A stretch of DNA of 28,284 nt, taken from positions 1 through 28,284 of the forward strand of contig JAVKHO010000025.1 in the NCBI GenBank assembly GCA_031459915.1, written 5' to 3'. The DNA comes from Candidatus Tepidifontimicrobium thermophilum (GTDB lineage Bacteria; Sysuimicrobiota; Sysuimicrobiia; Sysuimicrobiales; Sysuimicrobiaceae). The position numbers and the translations under genes were made by a program. The notes beneath the pieces are model-generated. The model made no database searches. It was given only the letters and a program-made list of their open reading frames with translations, and had not been told where the DNA came from. Positions 1 through 20,306 of the stretch are shown here, piece by piece. Numbering within the stretch: position 1 is the stretch's first letter; every line of letters begins with the position of its first letter.

Positions 1-219
1 CAGCACCGTAAGGGTACGGGCTTGGGTCAGCTGCTCGGCTTGCTGCCGCACCCGGCTTGCGGCGCCGGGGGCAGGGAGCCGGTCGAGGACCTCGGCCCGA
101 CGGGCGAGCTTAGCCCCCAGCAGTTCCCTGGTCAGCTCTACGCCCAGCTCGTTACTAGGGGCCAGGGCCTGGGCTCTGCGCAGTCGGGGTTCGCTCGGGG
201 AAGGGCCACGAACACGCAC
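1..219 (-). pseudogene. N-terminally truncated fragment resembling stand-alone Cas1/casposase-like integrase; runs off the window edge
   Basis: Manual translation of 219->1 has no stop: VRVRGPSPSEPRLRRAQALAPSNELGVELTRELLGAKLARRAEVLDRLPAPGAASRVRQQAEQLTQARTLTVL. It matches, from recall, the LRRAQALA...G.E..RELL.AKL linker/helix segment of solo Cas1 proteins. Only about 50 bp separate it from the upstream gene stop. Confidence 0.6.
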
Positions 220-271
220 CGGCGCGCCCGGACGGCCACGGGCCTCTCCTGTACCCGGCCTACCACGCCGC

Positions 272-2347
272 TCAGTGGGACTCCGCGGCCTGGCGGCGGT
301 GGGCCGCCTCCTCCACCACCTTCTGGGCGATGTGAGACGGGACCTCCTCGTAGTGGGAGAAGCTCATCTCGAAGAACCCGCGGCCGCCCGTGATGGACCG
401 CAGGTCGCTGGCGTACCGGAGCATCTCCGCCATGGGCACCTGGGCCCGCACGGTGGTGGTGCCGTCGCCGTTGGGCTCCATCCCCTGGATGCGGCCCCGC
501 TTGCCGTTGAGGTCGCCGATCACGTCCCCCACCAGGTCGTCCGGGACGGTGACGGACACGTTCATGATGGGCTCCAGGAGCACCACCCCGGCCTGCTCCG
601 CGGCCTTCTTGAACGCCAGCGACCCCGCGATCTGGAAGGCGATGTCCGACGAGTCCACGGGGTGGGTCTTGCCGTCCACCAGGGTCACCCGCACGTCCAC
701 CACCGGGTAACCCGCCAGCACACCCTCCTCCATGGCCTTGCGGACCCCTTTGTCCACCGACGGCCGGAACTGCTGCGGGATGGCGCCGCCGAAGATCCTG
801 TCCACGAACTCGTACCCCGTGCCGCGGGGCAGCGGCTCGATCTCGATGGTGCACACCCCGTACTGGCCGCGGCCGCCTGTCTGCTTCACGTAGCGGCCCT
901 CCGCGGTCGCCTTCTTCCGGACGGTCTCCCGGTACGGCACGTGGGGCTGGCCCAGCTGGACTTCCACGTGGAACTTGCGCCGCAGACGGTCCGCCACGAT
1001 CTCCAGGTGGGACTCGCCTAACCCTGACAGGATGGTCTTCTTGGACTCCGGGTCGTGCTCCACGTGCAGGGTGGGGTCCTCCTCCGCTAGCCGGGCCAGG
1101 GCCTGGCCGAGCTTGTCCTCGTCCTGCTTGCTCTTCGGCTCCACGGTCATGGAGATGGCGGGCCTGGGGAACTCCACGGGCCGCAGCCGCACGGGGTGGT
1201 CCTTGCTGCACAGGGTGTCGTTGGTCTGGGTCTCGCTGAGCTTGGCCACGGCGCCCAGGTCCCCCGCGGGGACCTCCGATACCGGGATCTGCTGCTTGCC
1301 CCGGAGCAGGTACAGCTGGCCCACGCGCTCCGCGCGCTCCTTGTTGGCGTTGTACACCTGGGAGTCCGAACGCAGGGTGCCCGAGTACACGCGGAAGTAG
1401 GAGAGCCGGCCCACGTACGGGTCCGCCATGGTCTTGAATACCAACGCGGCCAGGGGCCCCGAGGGGTCCGGGCGGAGCGTCTGCCCGTCCACGGACACCT
1501 CCGCGGGCCGGTCCGCGGGACTCGGCACCAGATCCACCACCAGGTCCAGCACACTCTGCGCCCCCAGCCCCGAAGTGGCCACCGCGCACACCACGGGCAC
1601 CACCCGCCCCGAGGCCACGCCGGCCCGCAGGCCCCCGCGCAGCTCGTCCTCCGACAGCTCGCCCTGCTCCAGGTACTTCTCCAGGAGGGCGTCGTCGGAC
1701 TCTGCGGCTCGCTCCAGCAGTTTTTCCCGCCAGCTCAGGGCCTCGTCCCGTGCGTCCTCAGGCAGCTCCGCCTCCCTGGCCCGTCCCCCCTCGTACGTGA
1801 ACGCCCGCATGCCCACCAGGTCCACCACGCCGCGGAGGGCCGTCTCGGAACCCAGGGGGACCTGCAGGGGGACCACGTGGGCTCCGAACCGCGCCTGCAG
1901 GGACTCCACGGCCCGGGCGAACTGCGCGTTTTCCCGGTCCAGGCGGTTCACCACCACCAGGCGCGGCAGCCCGTGCTGGTCGGCCACCTTCCACAGCTTT
2001 TCGGTCTGCACCTGGACCCCGCTGAGGGCGTCCACCACGAACAGGGCCGCGTCCGCCACCCGGAGCGCCGCGTGCGCCTCGCCCACGAAGTCGGGGTAGC
2101 CAGGGGTGTCGATCAGGTTCACCTTGTGGTCCCGCCACTCCAGGGGAGCGGTGGCGGCGTTGATGGTGATCTTCCGCCGGACCTCCTCCGGGTCGAAGTC
2201 CGTGGTGGCGGTCCCGTCGTCCACGCGCCCCATACGCTCCGTGGCCCCCGCGCAGAACAGCAACGCTTCCACCAGGCTGGTCTTGCCCACGCCCCCGTGC
2301 CCTACGACCGCCACGTTCCGGATGCGTTCCACCGGGTAGGTCTTCAC
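272..2347 (-). CDS. fusA: Elongation factor G-like GTPase (EF-G2/EF-G II type)
   Basis: 691 aa. G1 GHGGVGKTS, DTPGY, G4 NRLD, LAEEDPTL, GLGESHLEI, KQTGGRGQYG, HPVDSS, LLEPIM, DLRSITGGRG. GTG start with GGGAGG RBS. Not in the rpsL-rpsG-tuf operon. Confidence 0.93.
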   Translation of the reverse strand: MKTYPVERIRNVAVVGHGGVGKTSLVEALLFCAGATERMGRVDDGTATTDFDPEEVRRKITINAATAPLEWRDHKVNLIDTPGYPDFVGEAHAALRVADAALFVVDALSGVQVQTEKLWKVADQHGLPRLVVVNRLDRENAQFARAVESLQARFGAHVVPLQVPLGSETALRGVVDLVGMRAFTYEGGRAREAELPEDARDEALSWREKLLERAAESDDALLEKYLEQGELSEDELRGGLRAGVASGRVVPVVCAVATSGLGAQSVLDLVVDLVPSPADRPAEVSVDGQTLRPDPSGPLAALVFKTMADPYVGRLSYFRVYSGTLRSDSQVYNANKERAERVGQLYLLRGKQQIPVSEVPAGDLGAVAKLSETQTNDTLCSKDHPVRLRPVEFPRPAISMTVEPKSKQDEDKLGQALARLAEEDPTLHVEHDPESKKTILSGLGESHLEIVADRLRRKFHVEVQLGQPHVPYRETVRKKATAEGRYVKQTGGRGQYGVCTIEIEPLPRGTGYEFVDRIFGGAIPQQFRPSVDKGVRKAMEEGVLAGYPVVDVRVTLVDGKTHPVDSSDIAFQIAGSLAFKKAAEQAGVVLLEPIMNVSVTVPDDLVGDVIGDLNGKRGRIQGMEPNGDGTTTVRAQVPMAEMLRYASDLRSITGGRGFFEMSFSHYEEVPSHIAQKVVEEAAHRRQAAESH

Positions 2348-2362
2348 GTCCGGCCCTCCCGT

Positions 2363-3325
2363 TCAGTATCCTGCTTCCCTATCTACCACGTTCCGCAGCG
2401 GCTCTCCCGCCACGTACCGCTTCAGGTTGTCGCAGAACAGCTCGACCACGCGGTCCATGTACCCGTGGAAGCTGCCCGCCACGTGGGGGCTCAGGAGCAC
2501 GTTGGGCAGGCCCCACAGGGGGCTTTCGGGGGGCAGGGGTTCGACGGCAAAGGTGTCCAGGGCGGCTCCCCGCAGCCGGCCTTCCCGTAGCGCCTCCACC
2601 AGGGCCGCCTCGTCCACCAGCCCGCCACGCCCCACGTTCACCAGCACCGCGCCCGGCTTCATCCACCCCAGCTGCTCCCGCCCCAGCAGCCCCCGGGTGG
2701 ACGGTACCAGAGGAAGGGTCAGGACGACGTAGTCCGACTTCCGCAGCACCTCCTCCAGCCCCTCCGGCCCCACCACCCGGTCCACGTGGGGGGTGGGCCG
2801 GGGACGCCGCCGCATCCCCCACACCTGCGCCCCGCACGCCTTACACAGGCGCGCCACCTCCTGTCCTACAGACCCCAGGCCCAGCACGCCCACCGTGCAG
2901 CCCGCCAGCTGCCCGCCCTCGTCCCGCTGCCACCGCCGCTGCCTCTGGTGCTCCACGTGCACGTGGAGGTTCCGGGCGAACATGAGGAGCCAGCCCAGCA
3001 CGTGTTCCGCCAGCGGGGTGGCGTGGATGCCCCGGCTGTTGGTGATCAGCACCTCGGACCGCCACAGAGCCCCGCCCAACAGGTGGTCCACGCCCGCGGA
3101 GGTCACGTGCACCCACCGCAGCCGCGGGGCCCTCTCCACCCAGGCGTCCGGGACCGCCCAGCTCACCAGGACCTCCGCGTCGGGCAGGTGTGCTTCCGCC
3201 TCCTCCCGCCGCACCACCCGCACGTCCACCTCCGGCCCGCAGCTGCGGATGAGCTCCGCGTGGTGGGGCTGCATCCGCGCGGTGCACAGCACAGTCAACG
3301 GTCGGCTGCGGCGGCTACGGAGCAT
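2363..3325 (-). CDS. D-2-hydroxyacid dehydrogenase family protein
   Basis: SAGVDH, GLGSVG Rossmann motif, NVGRG, LDTFAVEPLP, SPHVAG. Start placed at ATG 3325, overlapping the LysRS stop; the ORF-track extension to 3454 lies inside LysRS. Confidence 0.9.
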   Translation of the reverse strand: MLRSRRSRPLTVLCTARMQPHHAELIRSCGPEVDVRVVRREEAEAHLPDAEVLVSWAVPDAWVERAPRLRWVHVTSAGVDHLLGGALWRSEVLITNSRGIHATPLAEHVLGWLLMFARNLHVHVEHQRQRRWQRDEGGQLAGCTVGVLGLGSVGQEVARLCKACGAQVWGMRRRPRPTPHVDRVVGPEGLEEVLRKSDYVVLTLPLVPSTRGLLGREQLGWMKPGAVLVNVGRGGLVDEAALVEALREGRLRGAALDTFAVEPLPPESPLWGLPNVLLSPHVAGSFHGYMDRVVELFCDNLKRYVAGEPLRNVVDREAGY

Positions 3326-4919
3326 ACCTGACAGGCTGCCGACCCGAGGCCTCCCGCAGCCGGCGGACCACGAACTCCCGGCCCAGGGCGGCCAGCATGG
3401 CCCCGGCCTGGGGGCCGCTGCTCTTGCCCAGAAACGCCACGTACACGGCGCCAAACGCCTCCTGGGCCGAAAGCCCCAGCTCCGCCTTCAGACCGTGAAG
3501 GGTGGCCTGCACGGTATCAGGCTCCAGCTCTCCGGCCTCCAGGCGGTCCGCCAGGCGAGCCAGCAGCTCGCGCTGCGCCCCGGTGAGGGAGGCAACCTCC
3601 GGCGGCAGCGACTGCGTGACCGCGACACGGTAGTGCGGCGGGGCCCACTTCTCCAGCCACCGCCGCGCGTCCTCCACCCGCGCCCGCAGCTCCTCGCGAT
3701 CGGCTTCCGTGAGGGGGGCTCGCTTCTCCCGCTCCACCTGTTCCTCGACCCGCACGTGGGGCATCTGCACCCAGAAGGCCACCTTGGCAAAGCGCGGCCG
3801 GACGAACGGCCGGGGAGGGTCGGGACGGATCCACGCGTAGTGGAAGGTGCGGGCCAGATCCCGGACGTCCTGCTGTTCGCCCGGCGTCCGCGCGGGGAGC
3901 TCACCGAAGTACGCGGCCGCGGCCCGGTCGTACTCGTCGTACAGCCGCGGGACGGTCTCGCCGCCGGGGTCGAAGTCGATGGCGGTCCGGTAGTAGGCCC
4001 GCACCACCAGAAAGCGCACCAGCTCCGGGCGCAGCACGTCCAGCAGCTCCCGTGCGCTCACCCCGCCGCGGCTGCTGGCCATCTTCTTCCCGCCCACCAG
4101 GAAGAACTCGTACGGGATGGGGAAAGGGACCTCCACGCCGAAGATGCGCCGCGCCACCACGGAGGCGGTGTCGTGGCTGCCGCCCCGGGTCATGTGGTCC
4201 TTGCCGGCACCCTCCACCTTCACCCCGAAGTGCGCCCACTTCGCCGCCCACTCGGTGCGGTAGGTGAGCTTCGCACCCCCGCCAAACGGCGACCGCCGGC
4301 CCCGGTGGCCGCAGCCCTGGGCCCACGCCACCTTGTCCGGCCGGCACTCGTACTCCACCGCCTGTCCGTCCCAGCCCAACACCACCGTGGTGCCGATGCG
4401 GCCGCACCGTTCGCACAACACCTGCACCGGGTGGCGCTCCGCCCGCCGGCTGCCGGTGATCTCCCGCTCGATGGCCACGATCTCCGCGGCACGGTCCAAA
4501 GCCACCCGCAACGCGGGGTCGAACGCTCCGGTGCGGTACAGGTGGCTGGTCCGGTACGTGCGGGGCGTGCACCCCACGGCCCGGAAGACGGACTCGAACT
4601 CCCGGGCGAAGTGGTCCGCGAAGCTCGGAGCGTCGGCCCCGTGCCACGGCACGTCGCACAGAGGCCGGCCCATGTGGGGGCGGTAGAAGTCCTCCGGGAG
4701 CGAAGGCGGCAGTCCGTCCAGAGGGTCGAAGTCGTCGAACCCGTACAGGAAGTCCACGGGCTGCCCGCGCTCCCGCAGGCCGCGCGCCACCGCGTCGTGC
4801 AGGATCACGCCCCGCAACGACCCCACGTGGGCGGGTCCAGACGGCGTCCACGCGTCGTTCACCACGTACGGCGCGGCGCGCTCCTCACAGATCCGCTCCA
4901 CCAGGACGTCCACCCACAC
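3315..4919 (-). CDS. lysS: Class I lysine--tRNA ligase
   Basis: TPSGPAHVGS (HIGH-like), DDFDPL, CERCG and C...CGH zinc motifs, EWAAKW, EGAGKDH, PYEFF, KMASSRG (KMSKS-like), C-terminal GKSSGPQAG. Confidence 0.95.
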   Translation of the reverse strand: MWVDVLVERICEERAAPYVVNDAWTPSGPAHVGSLRGVILHDAVARGLRERGQPVDFLYGFDDFDPLDGLPPSLPEDFYRPHMGRPLCDVPWHGADAPSFADHFAREFESVFRAVGCTPRTYRTSHLYRTGAFDPALRVALDRAAEIVAIEREITGSRRAERHPVQVLCERCGRIGTTVVLGWDGQAVEYECRPDKVAWAQGCGHRGRRSPFGGGAKLTYRTEWAAKWAHFGVKVEGAGKDHMTRGGSHDTASVVARRIFGVEVPFPIPYEFFLVGGKKMASSRGGVSARELLDVLRPELVRFLVVRAYYRTAIDFDPGGETVPRLYDEYDRAAAAYFGELPARTPGEQQDVRDLARTFHYAWIRPDPPRPFVRPRFAKVAFWVQMPHVRVEEQVEREKRAPLTEADREELRARVEDARRWLEKWAPPHYRVAVTQSLPPEVASLTGAQRELLARLADRLEAGELEPDTVQATLHGLKAELGLSAQEAFGAVYVAFLGKSSGPQAGAMLAALGREFVVRRLREASGRQPVRYAP

Positions 4920-4997
4920 GGGAGACCCTCAAGGAACCGTTGTCACGACGTCCCCGGAGCCGGCTCCTGGCCTGAGGACGCCGGCCTCCGTCGGTCC

Positions 4998-6344
4998 CTA
5001 GGATACCGGTGCCGCGGGCGCCCGTGCCACCAGCCACTTCCGCGCGGGACCTGCCACGAAGAACGACCCGGTGACCACCAGCAGGTCCTCCGGCCCGCAG
5101 CACCTCAGGCCCTCTGCCACCGCCGCCTCGCAGTCCTCCACCACCCGGACCCGCGGGTGCGCCTCCCGCAGCGTCTGCGCCAGCTCGCCCGCAGGCACCG
5201 CCCGCACGTGCTGGGCCGTGGTGACCACCACCTCGTCCGCGCAGGGCAGCACCTCCTGCGCCGTCTGCCAGGTCTCGTGACCCCGGACCATCCCCAGCAC
5301 CAGCACCACCCGCCGGTCCGGGAACAGCTCCTCCAGGGTAGCCCGCAGGGCGCGCATGGAAGCGGGGTTGTGCGCCACGTCCACCAGCACCCACGGACGC
5401 TGTCCCACCAGCTCCTGGCGGGCCGGCCAGCGCACCCGGGCAAGGCCCTCCCGCACCAACTGCGGGTCGGGGCGTTCGCCGTCCCTCGCCAACCACGCCT
5501 CCACCGCGGCCACCGCCACCGCGGCGTTGGTGGCCTGGTGCCGACCCAGCAACGGCACCCAAAGCCCTCCGTACCGCTGCAGCGGCGTTTGTACCGACAG
5601 GCGCACGCCGCTCAGCTCGCTGGCCTCCACGTGGAACTGCACCTCCGACCCCACACGCACGCGCCGGGCACCGAGCTCGCGGCAGGTCGCCTCCAGGACC
5701 TCCTCCGCCTCCGGGGACTGCGGGGCACACACCACGAGCCCCCCGGGCCGGATGATGCCCGCCTTCTCCCGGGCGATCTCCCGCAGGGTGCTACCGAGCA
5801 CGTCCGTGTGGTCGTAGGAGATGGGGGTGACCACGGAGACCTCGGGGTGGCACGCGTTGGTGGCGTCCAGCCGGCCGCCGATCCCCACCTCCAGCACGGC
5901 TCGCTGCACCCCTTCTTCCACGAAGTACCGCGCCGCCAGGGCCACGGACACCTCGAAGTACGTGGGCTTGCCCCACGGGTCGCGTGCCCCCGCCTCCACC
6001 GCGGGGACGGTGTCCTGCACGAGCCGGGCCAGCCGCTCGGGAGGGACCAGGACGTCGTTGATGCGGATGCGCTCCCGGTAGTCCTGTAGGTGCGGCTTCG
6101 AGTAGAAGCCCACCCGCTGCCCGTGGGCCTGGAGGATGGACACCAGCATGGCGGCCGTGGACCCCTTGCCCTTGGTGCCCGCCGCCAGCACCGAGCGGAG
6201 CCGGTCCTGCGGGTCCCCCAGACGCCGCAGCAGGGCCTGGATCCGCTGCAGCTTGATCTCCGCGTAGGGGACTGCAGAACGCTCGTAGTTCAGCAGACCG
6301 TCCAGCCACTCCAGGGCGCGAGGGTAGTCCCACGCCGCTCTCAC
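4998..6344 (-). CDS. folC: Folylpolyglutamate synthase/dihydrofolate synthase
   Basis: [70 protein letters not shown] overlap with folD. Confidence 0.95.
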
Positions 6345-7201
6345 CGATCCCCTCCTTCCACCTGCAGGCGCGCGGCCCGAAGGGTGTTGCGCAGCAACAT
6401 GGCCACCGTCATGGGCCCAACGCCTCCCGGCACGGGGGTGATCCAGCCTGCCACCTCCCGGACCGCGTCGAAGTCCACGTCACCCACGATCCGGTCGTCC
6501 TGCCGGGTGATCCCCACGTCCACCACCACCGCACCCGGCTTGACCATGTCTGCGGTCACTAGGCGCGGCCTACCCACCGCGGCCACCAGCACGTCCGCCT
6601 GCCGGGTGTGGGCACCTAAGTCCCGGGTGCGGGAGTGGCACAGGGTGACCGTGGCGTGTTCGGCCAGCAACAGCAGGGCCGTGGGCTTGCCCACCAGGTT
6701 GCTGCGGCCCACCACCACGGCCCGCGCGCCCGCCAGGTGCACTCCCGTGGACCGCACCAGCTCCAACACGCCCAGAGGCGTGCAGGGCACGAGCTGCGGG
6801 CGGCCCAGGCTCAGGCGTCCCGCGTTGTACGGGCTCAGCCCGTCCACGTCCTTGCGGGGGTCCAGGCGTTCGAACACCGACTCGGGGTCCAGGTGCTCGG
6901 GCAACGGCAGCTGCGGCAGGATCCCGTGCACGTCCTCCCGCGCGTTCAACCGGTCCACCAGGTCCAGCAGCTCCTGCTGCGAGGTCCGGGCGGGCAGGTG
7001 AAAGGTCTCTGACCGGATGCCCACCGCCGTGGCGGCGCGCGCCTTGTTGCGGACGTACAGGGCGGAAGCCGGGTCGTCGCCCACCAGGATGGCGGCCAGG
7101 GCGGGGCTGGTTCCGTGGCGGGCGGTGAAGGCTTCCACCTCCCGCTGCACCTCCTCGCGGATCCGCGCGGCCAGGGCGCGACCGTCCAGGATCTCGGCCA
7201 T
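6341..7201 (-). CDS. folD: Methylenetetrahydrofolate dehydrogenase/cyclohydrolase
   Basis: [49 protein letters not shown] 7201 with GGAGG upstream. Confidence 0.96.
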
Positions 7202-7295
7202 GCTGGAGATTCCTCCGGCGAACGTGGGTCGGCCGCCCGACTCGGGCAACCGAACCCTACGTTACCACACGGGAAAAGGGGCGTGCGGGCTCCTG

Positions 7296-8021
7296 TTAGG
7301 GCGGCGAACCCGCGGGGCTGAAGTCCGCGCAGATCCGGCAGCTAGCGCCCGGCTGGCTGCTGACCACCACGTCCTGGGAGTTCACCACCACCGCCCGCAG
7401 CTTGAACCGAACGGGCCAGTCCTTCTGCGTGAGCACGGGGTTGAAGCGGCGTTCCAGCTCCCTCAGCACGGGCTCCGGTACGGGGAAGCCGTTCACCCGG
7501 AGCCGGTCCAGCCGGAAGTACATCTCGGGCCCGCCCTCCACAACGAAGGTACCCCGCAGCTCCACGGGCAGCTGGGCTCCCCACAGGGGGACCACACCCC
7601 GGCCGTACACGTACCCGCGCTCGCTCCACAGGCGGACCCGCTGCCCCGGCGTCAGCTGGGAGAAGTACTGCTCGAGGTTTTCGAAGCTCACCCGCATGTG
7701 CAGGGCGCTGTCGCGGACCCCGTCTGCCTGGAACTGCCCCCGGCGCAGGGCCTGCGGGTTGAAGCTCACGCCCACCAGCCGCACCCACGCCTCGTCCACC
7801 CGGAAGCCGTCGGACAGGGTCGCCCGGGCTGCGTACACACTCACCCGCGCGTAGCCCCCCTCGTACAGGTCCGGTACCGCGTCCACCCGCAGGACCCTGG
7901 CCTCCCGGAAGAAGCTGGCCACCGCCTGGCGCACCAACGCTTCGTCCGCCGACGCGACGGGCGCCACCCACAGTGCCGAGAGGGCCACCAGGCTCAGGGC
8001 GGCAGCGGGCCAGGACCGCAT
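7296..8021 (-). CDS. Exported protein, LmeA/DUF2993-like
   Basis: Signal-peptide-like N-terminus ending ASA-D. Beta-rich body with FNPVL..KDWP and .L..V.V pattern near the C-terminus, as in DUF2993/LmeA-type proteins (recall). Confidence 0.55.
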   Translation of the reverse strand: MRSWPAAALSLVALSALWVAPVASADEALVRQAVASFFREARVLRVDAVPDLYEGGYARVSVYAARATLSDGFRVDEAWVRLVGVSFNPQALRRGQFQADGVRDSALHMRVSFENLEQYFSQLTPGQRVRLWSERGYVYGRGVVPLWGAQLPVELRGTFVVEGGPEMYFRLDRLRVNGFPVPEPVLRELERRFNPVLTQKDWPVRFKLRAVVVNSQDVVVSSQPGASCRICADFSPAGSPP

Positions 8022-8107
8022 CCGGCTCCCCCCGAAGCCGCGTTTGCAGGATCTGTGCCGCGAACGCCGCAGTCTCCGGACGCCTCCCGGACCACGGTGC
8101 GCTGGGC

Positions 8108-8181
8108 TGGAGCGGGAGACGGGAATCGAACCCGCACCACCAGCTTGGAAGGCTGGGGCTCTACCATTGAGCTACTCCCGC
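8108..8181 (-). tRNA. tRNA-Gly (TCC)
   Basis: GCGGGAGTAGCTCAATGGTAGAGC...CCAGC-CTTCCAA-GCTGG...GGTTCGATTCC...CTCCCGCTCCA. Full cloverleaf, U73, encoded CCA. Confidence 0.97.
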
Positions 8182-8203
8182 CCGCGAAGCGGTCTCCTGA
8201 GAA

Positions 8204-8290
8204 TGGTGGGCGGGGAAGGATTCGAACCTCCGAAGGCATTCCGCCAGCTGATCTACAGTCAGCCCCCTTTGTCCGCTCGGGCACCCGCCC
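8204..8290 (-). tRNA. tRNA-Tyr (GTA)
   Basis: GGGCGGG acceptor stem, anticodon arm GCTGA-CTGTAGA-TCAGC, long variable arm, GGTTCGAATCC, A73, CCA. Confidence 0.96.
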
Positions 8291-8301
8291 AGCCAACTGC
8301 G

Positions 8302-8330
8302 ATTGTAGGTTCGGCCCCAGTCGGGGTCAA
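8302..8330 (-). promoter_or_regulatory. Sigma70-type promoter for tRNA-Tyr/tRNA-Gly
   Basis: TTGACC-17 bp-TACAAT, ending 11 nt before the mature tRNA 5' end. Confidence 0.75.
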
Positions 8331-8731
8331 GGCGCACGGCGGCGTCGAGCCGCCGACGCCTGCTTTCCGGAAGTCCCCGCAAGCCGTTCCTGCAGGACCT
8401 CCGCGAGGACCACGGCGTTGTTGTGCCGTTCGTCGCGGGCGCCGAACACGAGGGTGACGGTATCGTGCCGCGCCCGTTCCGCGAGCTGCTGGACGAGCTC
8501 CCGCGCCGGGCTGCGGGACAGTTCCTCCCGGTACCGCCTGCGGAACTCCTCCCACTTGACCGGGTCGTGGCCGAACCACCGGCGCAGCCGGTCGCTGGGT
8601 GCCAGCTCGCGCGCCCACAGGTCCACCCGCGCCGCCTCCTTGCTAAGCCCCCGCGGCCACAGCCGGTCCACCAGGACCCGGAAGCCGTCCTGCGGTTCCG
8701 GCGGCTCGTACACGCGCCGCACCCGCAGCAT
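8327..8731 (-). CDS. DUF488/YeaO family protein
   Basis: RVYE, DGFRVLVDRLWPRGLSKE, ELAPS..LRRWFGHDP, F..RY..EL, HNNAVVL. Confidence 0.9.
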   Translation of the reverse strand: MLRVRRVYEPPEPQDGFRVLVDRLWPRGLSKEAARVDLWARELAPSDRLRRWFGHDPVKWEEFRRRYREELSRSPARELVQQLAERARHDTVTLVFGARDERHNNAVVLAEVLQERLAGTSGKQASAARRRRAP

Positions 8732-8738
8732 CAACCGT

Positions 8739-8747
8739 ATTATCCCA
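8739..8747 (-). promoter_or_regulatory. Putative extended -10 for leaderless DUF488 transcript
   Basis: TGgGATAAT, 7 nt before ATG 8731; no Shine-Dalgarno. Confidence 0.45.
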
Positions 8748-8818
8748 CGGTCCGGAGCCCTGGACCCCGGAGCCCGGGACGTGCAAAATGGTGGGCGGAC
8801 TCTGTCGGGGAGGTCGGG

Positions 8819-9205
8819 ATGGCAGCGGTCCTAGGAGTGCTGCTGGCTCTGGCCCTGATGGGCACCGCGGTGTACGCGGCGTGGCGGCTCGGGGCACCCA
8901 CGTGGCGACAGGCGATCCAGGAGGCCGACCAGGAGCTGTCGGGCGAAGCCCCGGTGCCGCGCCCCAGCCTGGTGGCGGACGTGGGCGACCACAACCCACC
9001 GCCGCGGCTTTCGTGGAACTGGGCCGCGGCGCTGCTGGGCCCCTTCTGGTACCTGTGGCGCGGGCTGTGGGCGCACTTCTGCGCCCTGGCCGCGGTGGTG
9101 CTGCTGAGCGGCGGGCTCCTGGCTCCCTTCGTGTGGCTGTACTGCGCCCTCAAGGCCAACGAGGACCTGTGGGAGCTGCGCAAGGCCCGCTGGAGCGCGT
9201 ACTGA
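8819..9205 (+). CDS. Small membrane protein, DUF2628-like
   Basis: ATG 8819 after GGAGG. N-terminal TM helix, SWNWAAALLGPFWYLWRGLW motif, two further hydrophobic segments. Confidence 0.7.
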   Translation: MAAVLGVLLALALMGTAVYAAWRLGAPTWRQAIQEADQELSGEAPVPRPSLVADVGDHNPPPRLSWNWAAALLGPFWYLWRGLWAHFCALAAVVLLSGGLLAPFVWLYCALKANEDLWELRKARWSAY

Positions 9206-9232
9206 CGGGGTCTCCGGGGAGTTCCGGGCCAT

Positions 9233-10177
9233 CTAGCCCTGCGGGTACAGCCGCCGGAGGAAACCTTCCTTCCGGCGCCAGTCCTCGCTGACCTTCACCC
9301 ACAGGTCCAGGTACACCGGCCCGCCCACCCAGGCCTCCACCTCGGGGCGCGCCCGGCGTCCGATCTCGCGGATCACGCGGCCTCTTGAGCCCACCAGGAT
9401 CTTCTTCTGGGAAGGCCGCTCCACGTGGAGGGTGGCGCGGATGTAGGTGACCTCACCCCTTTCGGCCTTTCGGAACTCCTCCAGCTCCACCGCGATGGCG
9501 TGCGGGACCTCCTCCCGGGTGAGCTCCATGGCCTTCTCCCGGATGATCTCCCGCACCAGGGCCTGCAGAGGCTGGTCCGTGAGGTCTTCCGGAGAGAAGT
9601 ACGGCGGGCCCTCCGGCAGCCGGCTCACCAGGGCCTCCACCAGCCGGTCCAGCCCCTCCCGTCGCAGGGCGCTCGTCACCAGGACCTCCTCGGGCCGCAG
9701 ACGCTCACCGAGCCACCGCCGCCAGACCTCCAGGCTCTCCGCGGCCGCCAGGTCCCGTTTGTTGAGGGCCACCAGAAGCGGGACCCGGACCCGTCCCGCC
9801 GCCTCCGCGGCCGCCTCCGCCTCGTCCCCCGGGCTGCGGGAGCCGTCCAGGACCAGCAACGCGAGGTCCACTTCTTCCAGGACCCTGCGCGCGCCGCGGA
9901 CCATGTGCTCGCCGAGCTTGTGGCGGGGACGGTGCAGTCCCGGGGTGTCCACGAACACCACCTGCGCCCCGGGAAGGGTGAGGACGCCGCGGAGGGGACT
10001 CCGGGTGGTCTGCGGTACGGGCGAGGTGATGCTCAGTTTCGCGCCCACCAAGGCGTTCAGGAGGGTGGACTTGCCGCTGTTGGGCGGGCCGAACAGCGCC
10101 ACGAACCCCGACCGGTGTCCCGGTAGGGATCCGGGTGCTGACTTCCGGTCCCCTGCCGCGTCCGGCTTCTCGAGCAC
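9233..10177 (-). CDS. era: GTPase Era
   Basis: SGFVAL.GPPNSGKSTL, PQTTR, DTPG, NKRD, EIIREK, EEVPH, KH domain VGSRG, LDLWVKV. Confidence 0.96.
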   Translation of the reverse strand: MLEKPDAAGDRKSAPGSLPGHRSGFVALFGPPNSGKSTLLNALVGAKLSITSPVPQTTRSPLRGVLTLPGAQVVFVDTPGLHRPRHKLGEHMVRGARRVLEEVDLALLVLDGSRSPGDEAEAAAEAAGRVRVPLLVALNKRDLAAAESLEVWRRWLGERLRPEEVLVTSALRREGLDRLVEALVSRLPEGPPYFSPEDLTDQPLQALVREIIREKAMELTREEVPHAIAVELEEFRKAERGEVTYIRATLHVERPSQKKILVGSRGRVIREIGRRARPEVEAWVGGPVYLDLWVKVSEDWRRKEGFLRRLYPQG

Positions 10178-10183
10178 GGACCG

Positions 10184-10192
10184 ATTCTACCA
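10184..10192 (-). promoter_or_regulatory. Putative extended -10 for leaderless era transcript
   Basis: TGgTAGAAT, 6 nt before GTG 10177; no Shine-Dalgarno. Confidence 0.55.
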
Positions 10193-10223
10193 GCCGGTGC
10201 GCAGTGGGCTACCGACCCTCCGG

Positions 10224-10631
10224 TTACCGGTGTTCCTTCGGGCTCCGGAAGGCCCGGGGGAGGAAGTCGGGAAAGGAGTAAACCCGGGTGCGGCCGCGCC
10301 GGCTCAGGACCACGAACTGCGTGCCGAACTCCGCCATAACCTGCCGGCAAGCCCCGCAGGGCGTGAGCTCGCGATCGTCCGGGCCGGCCACCGCCACCGC
10401 CACCACCCGCCGCGCGCCCTCGGAGACCGCCTTGTGGATGGCCACCCGCTCCGCGCAGTTGGACAACCCGTAGGACCCGCACTCCACGTTGCACCCGGTG
10501 TACACGCGGCCCTGCTCGTCCAGCACCGCAGCCCCCACCCGGAAGCGGGAGTACGGCGCGTACGCGAACCGGCGCGCGCGCCGGGCCGCGCGCGCCAGGG
10601 CCTCCGCAGTACCCCGGTCCAGTTCCCTCAC
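10224..10631 (-). CDS. cdd: Cytidine deaminase (homotetrameric, three-Cys type)
   Basis: AYAPYSRFRVGAA, GCNVE, CAER, PCGACRQ. GTGA overlap with the upstream gene. Confidence 0.95.
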   Translation of the reverse strand: MRELDRGTAEALARAARRARRFAYAPYSRFRVGAAVLDEQGRVYTGCNVECGSYGLSNCAERVAIHKAVSEGARRVVAVAVAGPDDRELTPCGACRQVMAEFGTQFVVLSRRGRTRVYSFPDFLPRAFRSPKEHR

Positions 10632-11917
10632 GGGCGCGGCGCGGCCTCCGCGTCCTCCGGTGCCAGCTTCTCCACCCTCAGGCGCGCGATCCGCTGCCCG
10701 TCCAGTTCCTCCACGCGGATCCGGACCCCGTCGTAGGTGAGCTGCTCGCCCTGCTGGGGCACGTGTCCCATCCGGCTGTACACGAACCCGCCCAGGGTGT
10801 CCACCTCGCCCACGGGGAGGTCCAGCCCCAGGCGTTCGTTGACCTCCTCAAGGTGCATCCGGGCGTCCACCAGGGCGGTCCGGTCGTCCAGCATGACCAG
10901 CGGTTCACGCTCCTCCACGTCGTACTCGTCCCGGATCTCGCCCACGATCTCTTCCAGCACGTCCTCGATGGTCACCAGGCCCGCGGTCCCGCCGTACTCG
11001 TCCACGACGATGGCCAGGTGGACCTTCTTCTGGCGCATCTCCTGGAACAGCTCGTCCACCTTCTTCGTCTCGGGCACGTAGTAGGCGGGCCGCATGACCT
11101 CCGCGGCGGTGATCTGGGTCTGGCCGTCCCGCAGGTAGCGGAACAGGTCCTTCACGTACACCACGCCCACGATGTGGTCGATGGTCTCCCGGTACACGGG
11201 GATCCGCGAGTGCCCCTCCTCCAGCACCAGGTCCACGATCTCCCCGAGGGGTGCATCGTGGCGGACCGCCACCACGTCCACCCGGGGCACCATGATCTCC
11301 CGCACCACCGTCTCCCGGAACTCGAAGATGGAGTGGATCATCTCCCGTTCCCCTGCCTCCAGCTCGCCGTTGGCCTCCTCCATGCGGGCCACCAGGTCCA
11401 GCTCGCCCTCGGCTAAGGGGGCTTCGCGCGGGACCTGTACCCGCAGGACCCAGCCCGCGGCCCGGGCCAGCAGCACTACCAGGGCCACCACGGGAGCCAG
11501 AAGCCAGGTAGCAAGGCGGGCGGGCAGCGCGCACCACAGGGCCACACGGTCCGGCGAGCGGGCGGCTGCGGCCCTGGGCAGGGCCTCCACGACCAGCAGG
11601 AACACCGTGCCCGCCACCGCGAAGGCCAACCACGCACCCGCGGAGCCGAACCGGGTCGCCAGGTCGCTGGCCAGGACCACCGCCGCCCCCACGCTGGAGA
11701 GGGCGTGGCCGACCCGAAGGGCGCTCACGAGGCGCGAGGGAGCTTCCACCAGGCGCAACGCCACCGCGGCCGGCAGGTGCCCCTGCTCCGAAAGCTGCCG
11801 TAAGCGCTGGCGGCTGGCCCGCGGCAGGGCGACCTCGGCGAGGGAAAAGAAGGCAGCCACCCCGGCCAGGACGGCGAACAGCAGGTACCGTCCCAGGCTA
11901 CTGCCCGGATCTTCCAC
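10628..11917 (-). CDS. Hemolysin-family CNNM(DUF21)-CBS-CorC/HlyC protein, putative Mg2+/Co2+ transport-related
   Basis: AFFS.AE.A and N-terminal TM helices, VREIMVPR, HSRIPVY, AIVVDEYGGTAGLVTIEDVLEEIVGEI.DEYD, DTLGG. AGGAGG RBS. Confidence 0.92.
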   Translation of the reverse strand: MEDPGSSLGRYLLFAVLAGVAAFFSLAEVALPRASRQRLRQLSEQGHLPAAVALRLVEAPSRLVSALRVGHALSSVGAAVVLASDLATRFGSAGAWLAFAVAGTVFLLVVEALPRAAAARSPDRVALWCALPARLATWLLAPVVALVVLLARAAGWVLRVQVPREAPLAEGELDLVARMEEANGELEAGEREMIHSIFEFRETVVREIMVPRVDVVAVRHDAPLGEIVDLVLEEGHSRIPVYRETIDHIVGVVYVKDLFRYLRDGQTQITAAEVMRPAYYVPETKKVDELFQEMRQKKVHLAIVVDEYGGTAGLVTIEDVLEEIVGEIRDEYDVEEREPLVMLDDRTALVDARMHLEEVNERLGLDLPVGEVDTLGGFVYSRMGHVPQQGEQLTYDGVRIRVEELDGQRIARLRVEKLAPEDAEAAPRP

Positions 11918-11988
11918 TTAAGGCGTTCCTCCTACAGGACGCCCACCGTTGCGCGAGGTGGACGTGGGGCACACCGCCCCGGCGGCGG

Positions 11989-12480
11989 TCATTTTAACAC
12001 GGGCCCCGAGGCCTTCTCAACCGGACCGGACGGCCGGCGCAGCGTCCGCCACGCCGCCGCGCCGGCGGCCGCCACGGCTCCCACCGCGGCCACGGTAGGC
12101 TTGACCCACGTCGCGGGAACTCCCAGCCGCGCCAGCAGCGGCGGGCCCAGCACCACCGCCCCCGCCGCCGCGGCCGCCGCCGCGCCCAGCACCACCGCGG
12201 CCGCGCTGGTGTCCTTCACCCGCCGCGCCACTTCCGACGGCTGCGGCCACAGCCCGTCCACCAGGACCTCCACCGCGGTGTTCACCAGCTCCAGACTCAG
12301 CACCAGCCCGCAGGCCACAGCCAGCAGCGCCACCTCCATGGCGGACGCGTCCACCACCAGGGCCAGCGCCAGCACGCCCGCCGCCACCGCGCACTGGATC
12401 CGCAAGTTGCGCTGGGTGCGGAGGGCGTAGGCGACCCCGCAGCCCGCGGCCCGGAAGGCTTCCGCCAGGGTCCGGTTCAC
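11989..12480 (-). CDS. dgkA: Diacylglycerol/undecaprenol kinase family protein
   Basis: QRNLRI, LELVNTAVEVLVD, VKDTSAAAV. GTG 12480 overlaps the ybeY stop (GTGA); conserved ybeY-dgkA context. Confidence 0.88.
   Translation of the reverse strand: MNRTLAEAFRAAGCGVAYALRTQRNLRIQCAVAAGVLALALVVDASAMEVALLAVACGLVLSLELVNTAVEVLVDGLWPQPSEVARRVKDTSAAAVVLGAAAAAAAGAVVLGPPLLARLGVPATWVKPTVAAVGAVAAAGAAAWRTLRRPSGPVEKASGPVLK
11991..11999 (-). promoter_or_regulatory. Putative internal extended -10 promoter for hemolysin-cdd
   Basis: TGtTAAAAT inside the last dgkA codons, about 70 nt upstream of GTG 11917. Confidence 0.5.
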
Positions 12481-12923
12481 CGCCGCTTCGGCCTCCTCGC
12501 AGTCCACGCACGCACCAGACGCCGCTGCACCTCCCACATGGCCCGGCGCCCGTGCGGGGTTTCGTCCTCGTATCCCAGCAGGTGCAGGGTCCCGTGCACC
12601 GCCAGGAGGGCGACCTCCCGCGCGAGGGGGTGCCGCGCCCGGCGGGCCTGCCGGGCAGCCTGCTCCACGGAGATCACCACGTCGCCCAACAGGCCTCCGG
12701 CTCCGTCCTGCGGGAAGGCCAGCACGTCCGTGGTCCGGTCCTTCCCCCGGTACGCCCGGTTCAGGGACCGCACGGTGGCGTCGTCCGCCAGGACCACGCT
12801 CACCTCCACGGGGCCAGTGACCCCCTGGTCCTGCAGGGTCAGCCGGACCGCCCCGCGGGCAGCCCTGGCGAGGTCACGGGCCCACGCGCGGCCGGCGGCC
12901 CGGTACAGGAATCGCACCGACAC
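12477..12923 (-). CDS. ybeY: rRNA maturation endoribonuclease YbeY
   Basis: LNRAYRGKDRTTDVLAF, LGDVVIS, HGTLHLLGYED. Start uncertain (GTG 12923 or TTG 12953). Confidence 0.92.
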   Translation of the reverse strand: MSVRFLYRAAGRAWARDLARAARGAVRLTLQDQGVTGPVEVSVVLADDATVRSLNRAYRGKDRTTDVLAFPQDGAGGLLGDVVISVEQAARQARRARHPLAREVALLAVHGTLHLLGYEDETPHGRRAMWEVQRRLVRAWTARRPKRR

Positions 12924-14964
12924 CGCGCTGCCGCCGCCGGCGGTGCGCTTCAAGGCTCGCCTCCGGGTACTCCAGGCGCGGGTGGAACATGGACACCAGC
13001 AGCCGGGTGAACACCTGCGTGATGCGCTCCAGGTCTCGGAAGGTGAGGTCGCACTCGTCCAGCTGCCCGTCCTCCAGCCGCTCGTGCACGATCCGACGCA
13101 CCAGCTCCCGGATCCGCTCGGGCGTGGGGTTCTGCACGGAACGGGCCGCGGCCTCCACGCCGTCCGCCAGCATCACGATGGCGGCTTCCCGGGTCTGCGG
13201 CTTCGGCCCCTCGTACCGGAAAGCCTCGGGATCCACAGGCCCCTGCTGTTGCTCCACGGCCCGGTGGTAAAAGTACGCCATCAGGCTGGTGCCGTGGTGC
13301 TGGGGGATGAAGTCCGCTACCACCTTGGGCAAGCGGTACTGGCGGGCCAGCTCCAGCCCGTCCCGCACGTGGGCCGCCACGGCCAGCGCGCTCAAGCTGG
13401 GCGCCATCCGGTCGTGCGGGTTCTGCCCGCCCACCTGATTCTCCACGAAGAAACCGGGCCTGCGCAGCTTGCCCACGTCGTGGTAGTAAGTACCCACGCG
13501 GGCCAGGAGGGGGTCCGCACCCACCGCCTCCGCGGCCGCCTCCGCTAAGTTGGCCACCATGAGGGTGTGGTGGTACGTCCCGGGAGCTTCCAGCTGCAGC
13601 CGCCGCAGGAGGGGGTGGCTGGGGTTGCTGAGCTCGAGGAGCTTGATGGGGGTCACCAGGCCGAAAAGGTCCTCCAGGTACGGAAGCGCGCCGGTGGCGA
13701 GGATCCCGCACAGGACCCCGCCTGCTGCACCCACACCGGCATTGAGGGCCGCGTCGCGGGTCGGCGCTCCGGTCAGGAGGTCCAGCGCCAGCGCGGTGGC
13801 TGCGTTGGCGAGCCCCACCAGGAGGCCCGCGTACGCGAGGTCTGTCCGGCGGTGGATCCGGCGTGCGCTGAACACGCCCACGGCCGCACCCGCGTACGCC
13901 ACCGCCACCAGGCGCAGGTCCTGGGTGCCCAGCGTCCCCGCCAGGACCGCCAGCGCACCGGCGGCGAAGAGCGCCAGTCGGGGATTCACCAGCACCGCCA
14001 GCAGGATGGCCACCGCCGCCGTGGGCACGAGCAGCGGGTGGATCGTGGCCGCCACCAGGCGCGTGCCCGCGGCACCCAGCCACACCAGCAGCCCGGTGAG
14101 CACCAGGAGCTTGGGGCTACTCCACACCTCGGGCTGGAAATAGGCCAGGTAGGCGCCGAGGACGGCCACCAGGGCGGCCACCAGCACCAGGGTGCCGGCC
14201 AGCTTGCTCCACGGCCACGGACCGGTCGCCAGCCCCAGGGCCTGCAGCTTGCGCATCTGTTCGGGTGTGACCACCTCGCCGCGGCGCACCACCACCTCGT
14301 CCTTCAGGACCCGGACCCGGACCGGCTCTACCCCGGCCCGGGCCGCTTCCCGCGCCCGGCGGGTCTGCAGCTCGTCCACCACCAGGTTGGGCCGCAGGGC
14401 ACGGTCCGCCACCCACCTGCTGAACGCCAGAGCCGGCCCCCTGACCCCCTTCTCCCGCAGGATCGGCTCCAGTTGCTGGCGGGCGCCAGACAGGTCCTCC
14501 GGCCTCAGGGGCCGGGCCATCAGCCGGTAGGCGGCCGAGACGGCAGCGTCCAGGGCCGCCACCAGGTGCGTCCTGTCCAGGCTCAGGGCGGCCTCCAGCG
14601 CCTCTGCCTGCAGGCCCAGGCGGCGCAGGCGTTCCCGACGGGCCTCCGGAGACAGGGTGCGGTCCGCCCGCACCGCCAGCACCGACTCCACCAGCCCGCG
14701 CGCTTCCTGCTCGGACCGCTCCATGGCTTCCGGGACCGCCCGGTACGCCACGGGCACAGCTGCCGCCACCTCCTCCCGGACGGCCTCCGTGCGCTCCCAG
14801 TCCACGAACTCCACGGTCCGGGGCGCCACCACGTCCTGCGGGCTCACCGCGCCTGTCCGGAGGGGGACGGCAGGGGGAAAGTACGGCGACACGCCCACCG
14901 CGGCCAGAAGGACCGTGAGGGCGACCAACCATCCGGCCGGATGCCACCGTTTTGGAATCCGCAC
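12874..14964 (-). CDS. pgpH: 7TM-HD (HDIG) phosphohydrolase, PgpH/YqfF-like cyclic-di-AMP phosphodiesterase
   Basis: Extracellular 7TMR-HDED-like region, multiple TM helices, LLELSNP.HPLL, APGTYHH, YYHDVGK, FVENQ, QHHGT, FRYEGPKP, MLADGVEAA, DGQL. Sits upstream of ybeY. Confidence 0.88.
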   Translation of the reverse strand: MRIPKRWHPAGWLVALTVLLAAVGVSPYFPPAVPLRTGAVSPQDVVAPRTVEFVDWERTEAVREEVAAAVPVAYRAVPEAMERSEQEARGLVESVLAVRADRTLSPEARRERLRRLGLQAEALEAALSLDRTHLVAALDAAVSAAYRLMARPLRPEDLSGARQQLEPILREKGVRGPALAFSRWVADRALRPNLVVDELQTRRAREAARAGVEPVRVRVLKDEVVVRRGEVVTPEQMRKLQALGLATGPWPWSKLAGTLVLVAALVAVLGAYLAYFQPEVWSSPKLLVLTGLLVWLGAAGTRLVAATIHPLLVPTAAVAILLAVLVNPRLALFAAGALAVLAGTLGTQDLRLVAVAYAGAAVGVFSARRIHRRTDLAYAGLLVGLANAATALALDLLTGAPTRDAALNAGVGAAGGVLCGILATGALPYLEDLFGLVTPIKLLELSNPSHPLLRRLQLEAPGTYHHTLMVANLAEAAAEAVGADPLLARVGTYYHDVGKLRRPGFFVENQVGGQNPHDRMAPSLSALAVAAHVRDGLELARQYRLPKVVADFIPQHHGTSLMAYFYHRAVEQQQGPVDPEAFRYEGPKPQTREAAIVMLADGVEAAARSVQNPTPERIRELVRRIVHERLEDGQLDECDLTFRDLERITQVFTRLLVSMFHPRLEYPEASLEAHRRRRQRGVGAIPVPGRRPRVGP

Positions 14965-14986
14965 CCGGTGCGCCTCCGTCGCCCCG

Positions 14987-15451
14987 CTATTCTAGCAGCT
15001 GGCCGAGGGCCCGCACGACCGCGCGGCGGTCCTGCGGCCGCCGCACCACCACGAGGATGGTGTCGTCCCCGGCCACGGTACCGGCGATTTCCGGCATCCG
15101 GACCTCGTCGATGGCCGCGGCCACCGCGTTCGCACGGCCCGCCAGGGTCTTCACCAGGACCAGTCCCTCGCCCCAGTCCACCGCGGTGACGAACTCCCGG
15201 AACGCCGCCGCCAGCTTGGCCCGCGCTCCGGGGGAGGGGGCCTGGGGCACGCCCTGCGGCGGCGCGTACCGGTACTGACCCCGCTCGTCGGGCACCTTCA
15301 CCAGCCCCAGGCGCTTGATGTCCCGGGAGACGGTGGCCTGCGTCACCTGCAGCCCCTTCCGGCGCAGGGCCCGTACCAGCTCCGCCTGGGTGCGCACGGG
15401 CTGGGAAGAGACGATCTCCAGAATCAGGCGTTCCCGCTGCGCGCGGTTCAT
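14987..15451 (-). CDS. argR: Arginine repressor
   Basis: TQAELV, VTQATVSRDI, GTVAGDDTI. ATG 15451 overlaps the argH stop (ATGA). Confidence 0.96.
   Translation of the reverse strand: MNRAQRERLILEIVSSQPVRTQAELVRALRRKGLQVTQATVSRDIKRLGLVKVPDERGQYRYAPPQGVPQAPSPGARAKLAAAFREFVTAVDWGEGLVLVKTLAGRANAVAAAIDEVRMPEIAGTVAGDDTILVVVRRPQDRRAVVRALGQLLE
14989..14997 (-). promoter_or_regulatory. Putative extended -10 promoter for the pgpH-ybeY block
   Basis: TGcTAGAAT at the end of argR, then GGAGG and GTG 14964. Confidence 0.5.
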
Positions 15452-16917
15452 AGGCCCTGGAGGAGCTTTCCCTGCCGGTAGGCAGCGTACACAGGCGGGT
15501 CGGCTGCCGCGGCGAGCCACGCCCGGGTGGTCTCTACCTCGCGGCGGGCCGCCTCAAGTTGCTCCGCGACCCGCTCAGGAGCCGGTCCTCCGTGGGACCG
15601 CCGGGCCCGGCCCGCACCCTCCGGCCGCAGGGCGTCGTAAACGTCCGCCTCCACCTGCGGGCAGCAGGACTGCAGCACGTCCAGCGAAAGCTCCCACAGC
15701 TCACAGCCGCGGGCTTCCGCCTCCCGCACCGCCCTGCCCGCCTGCTCATGCGCCTGACGGAAGGGCACCCCGCGCCGGACCAGGTAGTCCGCCAGGTCGG
15801 TGGCCGTGAGGAACCCACCCTCCAGCGCCCGGGCCATGCGGTCCGGCCGGTACCGGATCCCCGCAGCCAGTACCCGGGCCGCCTCCAGGCAGCCCGCGGC
15901 GGTGTCCAGCGCGTCGAACAGCATCTCCTTGTCTTCCTGCAGGTCGCTGTTGTACGAAAGGGGCAGCCCCTTGAGCACCGACAGCAGCCCCGCCAGCGCC
16001 GCACTCCCCCGTCCGGCCTTCGCGCGGATCAGCTCGGCAACCTCCGGGTTCTTCTTCTGGGGCATGAGGCTGGACCCTTTGGCCACGGTGTCGTCCAGCT
16101 CCACGAACCCGAACTCCGCGGAACTCCACAGGACCACCTCTTCCGCCCACCGGGACAGGTGCACCAGCAGCACCGCGGCGGCAAACGCAGCCTCCAGCAC
16201 GAAGTCCCGGTCCGCCACCGCGTACAGGCTGTTGGGGAACAAGACGGAAAAGCCCAGCCAGTACGCGCTCCGCTCCGGGCGGACAGGTAGCGGGCTGCCG
16301 GCCAGGGCGCCGGCGCCCAGCACCGAAACCCCCGCGTGGTGGTGCGCGGCCTGCAGCCGCCGCGCGTCCGCGTTGAGGGCCCACACGTGGGCCAGCAGGT
16401 GGTGGGCCAGGCTCACGGGCTGCGCCCGCTGCAGGTGGGTGTAGCCGGGCATCCAGGTCTCCAGGTGCCCGGAAGCCTGGTGGACCCAGACCTCCTGCAG
16501 TTCGGCCACCCGTCCCACCAGCTCCCGCAGGCGGTCCCGGACGTACAGCCGCAGGGCGGTGGCCACCTGGTCGTTGCGGCTGCGGGCCGTGTGCAGCTTC
16601 CCTGCCGCCTCACCCACCCGCTGTCGCAGGACCCGCTCGATCCACGTGTGGACGTCCTCCTCGGTCCCCTCCACCGCCAGGCGGCCTTCCTCCACGTCCC
16701 GGAGGATCCCCGCGAGACCCTCCAGCACCGCTCGGGCGTCGTCGCCCGTGAGGATGCCGGACTCTGCCAGCATGCGGGCGTGCGCCAGGCTGCCGACCAG
16801 GTCGTGCCGGACCAGCCGGCGGTCGAAGGGAAGCGAGGCGGTGAACCGGTGCAGGGTCGGGTCCAGGTCGGCCCCGAACCGGCCGCCCCACAGCTTACCC
16901 GGCTTGCCCTCGGACAT
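15448..16917 (-). CDS. argH: Argininosuccinate lyase
   Basis: KLWGGRF, LHTARSRNDQVAT, PGYTHLQRAQP, GSSLMPQKKNP, YNSDLQEDKE, ATDLADYLV. Confidence 0.97.
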   Translation of the reverse strand: MSEGKPGKLWGGRFGADLDPTLHRFTASLPFDRRLVRHDLVGSLAHARMLAESGILTGDDARAVLEGLAGILRDVEEGRLAVEGTEEDVHTWIERVLRQRVGEAAGKLHTARSRNDQVATALRLYVRDRLRELVGRVAELQEVWVHQASGHLETWMPGYTHLQRAQPVSLAHHLLAHVWALNADARRLQAAHHHAGVSVLGAGALAGSPLPVRPERSAYWLGFSVLFPNSLYAVADRDFVLEAAFAAAVLLVHLSRWAEEVVLWSSAEFGFVELDDTVAKGSSLMPQKKNPEVAELIRAKAGRGSAALAGLLSVLKGLPLSYNSDLQEDKEMLFDALDTAAGCLEAARVLAAGIRYRPDRMARALEGGFLTATDLADYLVRRGVPFRQAHEQAGRAVREAEARGCELWELSLDVLQSCCPQVEADVYDALRPEGAGRARRSHGGPAPERVAEQLEAARREVETTRAWLAAAADPPVYAAYRQGKLLQGL

Positions 16918-16927
16918 CCGCGACGGT

Positions 16928-18166
<1,239 letters not shown>

Positions 18167-18171
18167 CCCGC

Positions 18172-20288: not shown

Positions 20289-20306
20289 CGCTCCTCTGTC
20301 CCGTTT

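Follow-up and report, generated by a model that had tools for sequence, protein, structure and literature searches.

A front-truncated casposase gene behind fusA2 in a hot-spring bacterium, very probably the relic of a family-3-like casposon

Family 1 casposons target aEF-2 genes. Those of family 3 are described as intergenic in the accessible part of PMC4779613, and AceAut-C1 of Ca. Acetothermum autotrophicum, a member of family 3, encodes a Cas1 with a C-terminal zinc-binding domain plus HTH (accessible part of PMC4046053). According to the accessible part of PMC6977970, casposases dimerise via their N-terminal beta domains, and a helix and a loop of the N-terminal region link the dimers into a tetramer that clamps the target. 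Two further groups are also independent of CRISPR: Cas1-solo group 1, which is without catalytic residues in the same portion of PMC4046053, and the proposed family 5 casposases, which come from hot springs, mostly lack PolB and have no C-terminal HTH (accessible part of PMC9755687).

The window analysed here is a stretch of 28,284 nucleotides, the entire contig C18 of genome G000 (a metagenome bin of 2.6 Mb in 33 contigs). The gene at its left end is very probably the front-truncated casposase of a family-3-like bacterial casposon, a dead relic and likely a decaying pseudogene at the edge of an island. We regard the locus as an ordinary one, i.e., a new instance of a kind of casposon already known. 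The features that the argument needs are these:

1..219, minus strand: 5′ part of a 5′-truncated casposase (cas1-solo) frame, which other assemblies of the species extend to 420-424 aa
1..207, minus strand: homology to the casposase linker and to the helices that open the catalytic domain (positions 97-167 of the family profile)
208..271, minus strand: 64-bp stretch from the fusA2 stop to the start of cas1 homology, holding the putative deletion junction
138..250, minus strand: AGGAG-led frame of 33 codons, no family match
97..99, minus strand: codon 41, Arg in the reference; runs X9 and X10, the majority of strain records and at least 90% of the family have Gln
1..13, unstranded: strain junction, where a contig of run X9 (probably X10 too) departs from the reference at position 13
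272..2347, minus strand: fusA2, a host EF-G paralogue whose conservation in relatives ends with the stop codon; it forms the island's left border

The minus-strand frame from 219 to 1 encodes 73 aa from a GTG start and stays open to base 1, just as the first-pass annotation had read it; since the window is the complete contig, the frame runs off the contig end, and the strain junction at position 13 is a likely cause of the break. Its proposed likeness to Cas1 stood up. Against Pfam PF01867 (Cas_Cas1) the peptide aligns at profile positions 72-138 with E 0.0035 and 17 bits, below the cut-off of 22.3; a profile built from 33 family relatives matches it at E 2.3e-20, with the alignment beginning at profile position 97 of 520. 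No other Cas1 match was found in the genome. The reported excess of A/T-ending codons is real as well (19/72, 26%, vs 319/3963, 8.0%, in ten neighbouring genes; Fisher p 4e-6), and the most reached in any of 50 host blocks of 72 codons is 13. We considered this bias as a signal of decay and rejected it: the same stretch holds 5/65 and 13/64 such codons in two intact relatives, and because one of them is biased alike, foreign origin is the better reading.

A GTG at 239, preceded by AGGAG at 250-246, does open a separate frame of 33 codons out of register with cas1, as had been noticed. The frameshift that the first-pass annotation placed near 185-190 did not hold, as family alignments run ungapped across the spot and the other two frames of the stretch give no match to the casposase family profile.

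Past base 1, a search for longer proteins found a record of 420 aa, 99% identical to the fragment, that extends the frame. The motif with the catalytic Glu, expected just there, is present as E..A..YW (E77), and H160, D172 and E175 are likewise retained, aligned with the invariant columns and with 6OPM. Cysteines 283, 286, 298 and 301 (zinc finger) are followed by an HTH-like tail; the four Cys are invariant and the tail helical in both the casposase family and this record. The long form scores 109 bits against PF01867, over the cut-off, passes the cut-off of TIGR00287 too, and is 67% identical across 406 aa to the intact casposase of genome G035, so the continuation belongs to a casposase and not to an unrelated family. 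The record's cluster has 11 members, seven of them named Cas1 of an Armatimonadota bacterium. The sequence beyond base 1 is known through protein records and not as DNA, because no contig DNA matched there: an exact-pattern scan of metagenome contigs for the window DNA gave 0 matches, a metagenome protein scan gave 37 loci, none belonging to this species, and 12 pattern matches in viral contigs were none of them confirmed.

What the gene lacks is its front. In the model of an intact relative (pLDDT 86.7), beta strands occupy approximately residues 18-100 and the first helix begins at 108; the homology in the window sets in directly past the final strand predicted for the N-terminal beta domain. 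Judged from this model and the alignments, the whole domain of about 100 aa is missing from the window gene. The first-pass annotation had argued that there was no room for it behind fusA2, and indeed the GTG at 219 comes 52 bp past the fusA2 stop (272-274), and the domain turned up neither in the other frames nor on other contigs of the genome. Positions 208..271 contain no cas1 match in any frame and no TIR motif, promoter or terminator. We propose that an ancestral casposon inserted in a strain-variable island, and that a later deletion, reaching from immediately past the fusA2 stop into cas1, would have removed the beta domain together with the replication genes and one end of the element. 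As the domain that makes the dimer and the tetramer is lost, the remnant is predicted, by analogy, to be unable to assemble or to integrate DNA, and little protein is expected because the reference allele has no in-frame ribosome-binding site.

The family to which the protein belongs is large. Of 8000 candidates scored, at least 2880 are relatives (the 120 best mostly measure 500-545 aa), a scan of 50%-identity representatives returned 777 at E up to 1e-30, and at least 394 stretches were confirmed in GTDB genomes. Among 79 genome loci out of the best 80 of these at least 394 confirmed stretches, a large PolB-like gene lies beside the casposase in 63, or in 51 of the 58 loci with at least 8 kb upstream. 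Polymerase B motifs are seen in the consensus of the large neighbouring genes, and matches to PF03175, all weak, were obtained for 12/18 of the neighbouring polymerases; sequence searches of the PDB with one of them gave no match, and the label stands on the motifs plus PF03175. An HNH-like gene accompanies 24 of the 79 loci, a label read from motifs with the Pfam HNH match absent. A scan of 94 loci, run without a motif prior, found TIRs with a flanking direct repeat in 24, delimiting elements of 12-20 kb, mostly with a 14-bp TSD. On a hot-spring contig, a casposase 65% identical sits in a full casposon module.

One of these 24 elements surrounds the closest intact relative, in G035 (L032:5522-18349; G035:C1:1955521-1968348), and spans 12,828 bp, with TIRs, an exact 14-bp TSD and an intact casposase. 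It carries helicase-like, ParB, HTH, methylase and PLD genes and gave no polymerase or HNH match; it is a non-autonomous casposon. In a quick IQ-TREE tree (47 rows, outgroups on long branches) the window protein shares a clade with this and other TIR/TSD-flanked casposases, apart from CRISPR-linked Cas1, with support of 100 on both branches. An orphan extra element end lies immediately past the right TSD of the G035 element. Elsewhere in the same genome, a 350-aa frame at G035:C1:2888093-2888722 (L035) gives a weak, divergent Cas1 match and has no tblastn similarity to the casposase family. Further observations among the relatives are tandem casposons with one common target duplication in Acidobacteriota genomes (L046/L055, L050/L071 and L092), CRISPR-like repeats (L045:19223-19860) that a Chloroflexia genome has within the right end of a casposon (830-20785) delimited by TIRs and a TSD, and repeat pairs close to the casposase in L056.

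Compared with the described systems, the nearest likeness is to family 3. A zinc finger and an HTH, both C-terminal, are shared by AceAut-C1, the 420-aa record and the family, and the repeat ends of AceAut-C1 given in the PMC4046053 supplement have the GGGATA and GTCAA motifs in common with the TIRs of the relatives. The relatives further resemble family 3 in their PolB, HNH-like and HTH genes, TIRs that start with GGGATA and 14-15-bp TSDs at intergenic sites; the window copy differs in having no N-terminal domain, no other element genes and no element ends. We therefore file the protein as a family-3-like casposase, likened to the published members by domain layout and end motifs. In the PDB, the family is matched best by 6OPM, the casposase of M. 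mazei (profile E 3.6e-38, predicted fold E 6.5e-18), a family 2 enzyme that shares the catalytic E/H/E, a 14-bp TSD and a C-terminal HTH (accessible part of PMC6977970). On the other hand, identity is about 22%, 6OPM is archaeal and targets tRNA-Leu or intergenic sites, a zinc finger is not described for it in that part of PMC6977970, and it possesses the dimer/tetramer beta domain that the window gene is without. Family 5 and Cas1-solo group 1, which have independence of CRISPR in common with our protein, were ruled out: the former lacks the C-terminal HTH that the 420-aa record has, and the latter has lost the catalytic residues that the record keeps.

CRISPR-associated Cas1 (TIGR00287, PF01867) shares fold and catalytic residues, and one could suppose that the fragment is a piece of an adaptation cas1 belonging to an array of the genome itself. 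Pfam and NCBIfam do call the protein Cas1, and the genome has an orphan array at the start of contig C16. Yet the window protein is without linkage to cas2 or an array, has the ZnF-HTH tail, falls in a separate clade, and matches a casposase at 67% over 406 aa vs 31-46% over short stretches for the CRISPR Cas1 of relatives; no cas2 or RAMP gene was found in G000. We give this reading virtually no credence, and the suggestion in the first-pass annotation that the protein is a CRISPR-independent Cas1 is upheld by its place among casposases in the tree, apart from CRISPR-linked Cas1. As to the array itself (G000:C16:1-345), no cas1, cas2 or RAMP gene was found alongside it in the assembly.

The fragment could also be imagined as an assembly chimera, given its place at the very end (base 1) of a metagenome-bin contig. 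Such a join is refuted because contigs from runs X10 (13-703) and X3 (1-301) span the junction of cas1 and fusA2. Of the 23 listed runs, 12, from seven hot-spring studies, contain half or more of the sequence words in bases 1-270 (seven of the 12 are marked as possible sources of the assembly and five are not), and eight protein records have the same start; the probability of an artefact is negligible.

Comparison of the locus downstream of fusA2 in relatives, a check that the first-pass annotation had recommended, showed the fragment to be missing from 11/11 genomes of the host's own family, where similarity ends at the fusA2 stop codon (in two of the 11 the contig ends 68 bp past that stop). 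In G004, G005, G006, G007 and G009 the DNA downstream of fusA2 matches contig C31 of G000 from about 4200 onwards, which by synteny points to the other border:

L168:1-4170 (G000:C31): likely far side of the island, with an intact hsdR (1047 aa), a small membrane-protein fragment and scraps, before a conserved host gene

The scraps are presumably a methylase and an IS3-like transposase, labels given from motifs. This layout suggests an island of variable content, different among species and strains, with the fragment as its left edge. The DNA between C18 and C31 is unassembled, and the far end of the casposon may sit there. The closest congener, G001 (L003), has unrelated cargo at the same spot, which we take, again from motifs, to be a broken glyoxalase-like gene and TusA-like and DsrE-like genes. 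Because the cargo differs there, the 3′ flank of fusA2 may be regarded as a turnover hotspot.

The fragment is single-copy in G000, and the other parts that would mark a casposon or a CRISPR locus, for which the first-pass annotation had proposed a search (cas2, array, PolB, TIR), were not found at the locus, with the gap beside the gene unassembled. By tblastn the genome gave no match for two PolB queries, HNH, helicase or ParB, the G035-type TIR was not found in it, and at 96% completeness it holds no cas2, RAMP gene or second cas1. Neither the fusA2 border nor C31:1-4300 shows a TIR or TSD, and the gap could hold the element end on the downstream side of cas1; the TTGAC target discussed below is absent from the fusA2 border. 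An 11-bp direct repeat shared by the fusA2 3′ end and C31:4136, reminiscent of the aEF-2 targets of family 1, was tried as a TSD and rejected, as approximately 1-2 such matches are expected by chance (an estimate); the copy at C31:4136 sits in what we take, from a motif, to be the IS3-like transposase scrap.

These absences also bear on a different history, in which the gene was already broken elsewhere and was brought behind fusA2 by an IS3-mediated event or an integrative island, with no local casposon insertion. Transfer of this sort is compatible with the locus because the border shows neither target site nor element end: TIR, TSD and TTGAC target are all missing, and the 3′ end of fusA2 is not a promoter, the usual target of the family. 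It would also account for the IS3-like and methylase scraps at the far border and the unrelated cargo of the closest congener at the same spot. However, neither border shows an integrase or matching element ends, and a local deletion gives the same picture in fewer steps. We consider it a possible but unlikely course of events, and a compatible variant, as it would alter the history and leave the verdict of a dead gene in place.

Another casposase remnant exists in this neighbourhood of the chromosome. In congener G003, contig C129 (L169:4627-5353) carries the 3′ part of an unrelated casposase, frameshifted and 96% identical to P0018 over 67 aa. About 100 bp from it, a probable toxin-antitoxin pair has a TTGAC site resembling a promoter, and the other end of that contig is syntenic with C31:8875-10495 of G000, i.e., the same chromosomal neighbourhood.

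Strain variation, read from four runs and from protein records, informs the state of the gene. Among 11 near-identical records, three are frameshifted near codon 147, two leave the frame after approximately residue 264 (one of these is also frameshifted) and two after approximately 275; in sum, 6/11 have lesions, three are full length (420-424 aa) and two are partial without a break, although the records may stem from a few studies and not be independent, and some lesions could be assembly errors. All eight records that include the 5′ end have the same start, the GTG at 219. In run X7, one contig (12.3 of a depth of 31.2) carries an extra base behind 216, and this, judged by eye, would join the AGGAG-led start to the cas1 frame. 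In run X9 a variant departs from cas1 at codon 69 (window position 13) into a sequence starting with TTTGAC, the target motif on the cas1 strand. The motif might be what is left of a target, but it is not followed by a −10 box, and neither G000 nor five congeners contain the sequence.

Some of these data count against the relic reading. Three records retain an open frame of 420-424 aa with all catalytic residues, the cut falls almost exactly at a domain boundary, and the X7 insertion would place the AGGAG-led start in frame. The 420-aa form deviates at just four near-invariant columns (intact members listed: 1-10), which fits a recent truncation; since only four such columns have changed, decay would be young or absent in the strains with the 420-aa form.

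One may then ask whether the truncated Cas1 has been domesticated, a module of catalytic domain, ZnF and HTH translated by read-through from fusA2 and acting as a monomeric nuclease or by binding DNA (casposon ends, defence). The clean cut at the boundary of beta and helical domains, the long frame and catalytic residues preserved in three records, the identical start of eight records, the in-frame variant in one X7 contig and the defence-type genes on the far side of the island are what one would expect of it. However, the truncated form is restricted to one species, three different lesions spread across 6/11 records with a fourth junction in X9, and the reference allele has no in-frame ribosome-binding site. 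Nor is there a conserved truncated subfamily: the median length before the motif is 106 aa in 119 homologue records, and among the short homologues, read by eye, only P0039 starts right at the motif, several others being partial N-terminal calls. Domestication is thus improbable on the present data. The more specific scenario, in which one species recruited a boundary-cut casposase, coupled to EF-G2 and with a one-base on/off switch, to serve in a defence island either as a monomeric nuclease or in blocking casposons that arrive, strikes us as quite improbable. Of the two outcomes that the first-pass annotation had offered, the remnant of a Cas1-encoding mobile element stands, and the lesions that other strains carry make a naturally N-truncated, functional Cas1 unlikely. 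A dead, front-truncated relic remains the preferred reading.

The intact relatives revealed a trend in target choice. TTGAC lies at the end of 19 of the 24 target duplications, in the following elements:

L032, L041, L045, L046, L049, L050, L053, L055, L063, L067: elements with a duplication ending in TTGAC
L071, L075, L080, L081, L091, L092, L096, L104, L110: further elements with a duplication ending in TTGAC

On the host side, a −10-like TAnnnT follows 16-19 bases past the TTGACN hexamer in 15/19, vs 105/2689 (3.9%) for all TTGAC in these loci at that spacing, and three of the four TTGAC sites without a −10-like box continue as the TIR of a tandem element. With one site common to the members of each of two pairs, 17 distinct duplications are left, and the independent ones are fewer still, as several Acidobacteriota sites appear homologous; five of the 24 elements break the TTGAC rule. 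Taken together, the target sequences suggest that integration by this casposase family duplicates the −35 box of a predicted promoter and spares the host promoter: insertion would rebuild the −35 element, and the host promoter would therefore be left intact. We found no report of promoter or TTGAC targeting by casposases in a literature search mostly of open-access papers, and the accessible part of the casposon review PMC9939771 does not use the word promoter.

Finally, the locus itself is of little weight: it is one more fossil of casposons that repeatedly invade and then decay in hot-spring Armatimonadota, with the second, unrelated remnant in G003, and public annotation wrongly names such fragments CRISPR cas1. 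The lead on promoter targeting in the relatives could matter more. If it is true, promoters would be a ubiquitous and harmless landing site for these casposons; if it is confirmed, bacterial casposases gain a defined and directly testable target, and this large and little-described family (at least 394 stretches in GTDB genomes) becomes a possible source of site-specific integrases.
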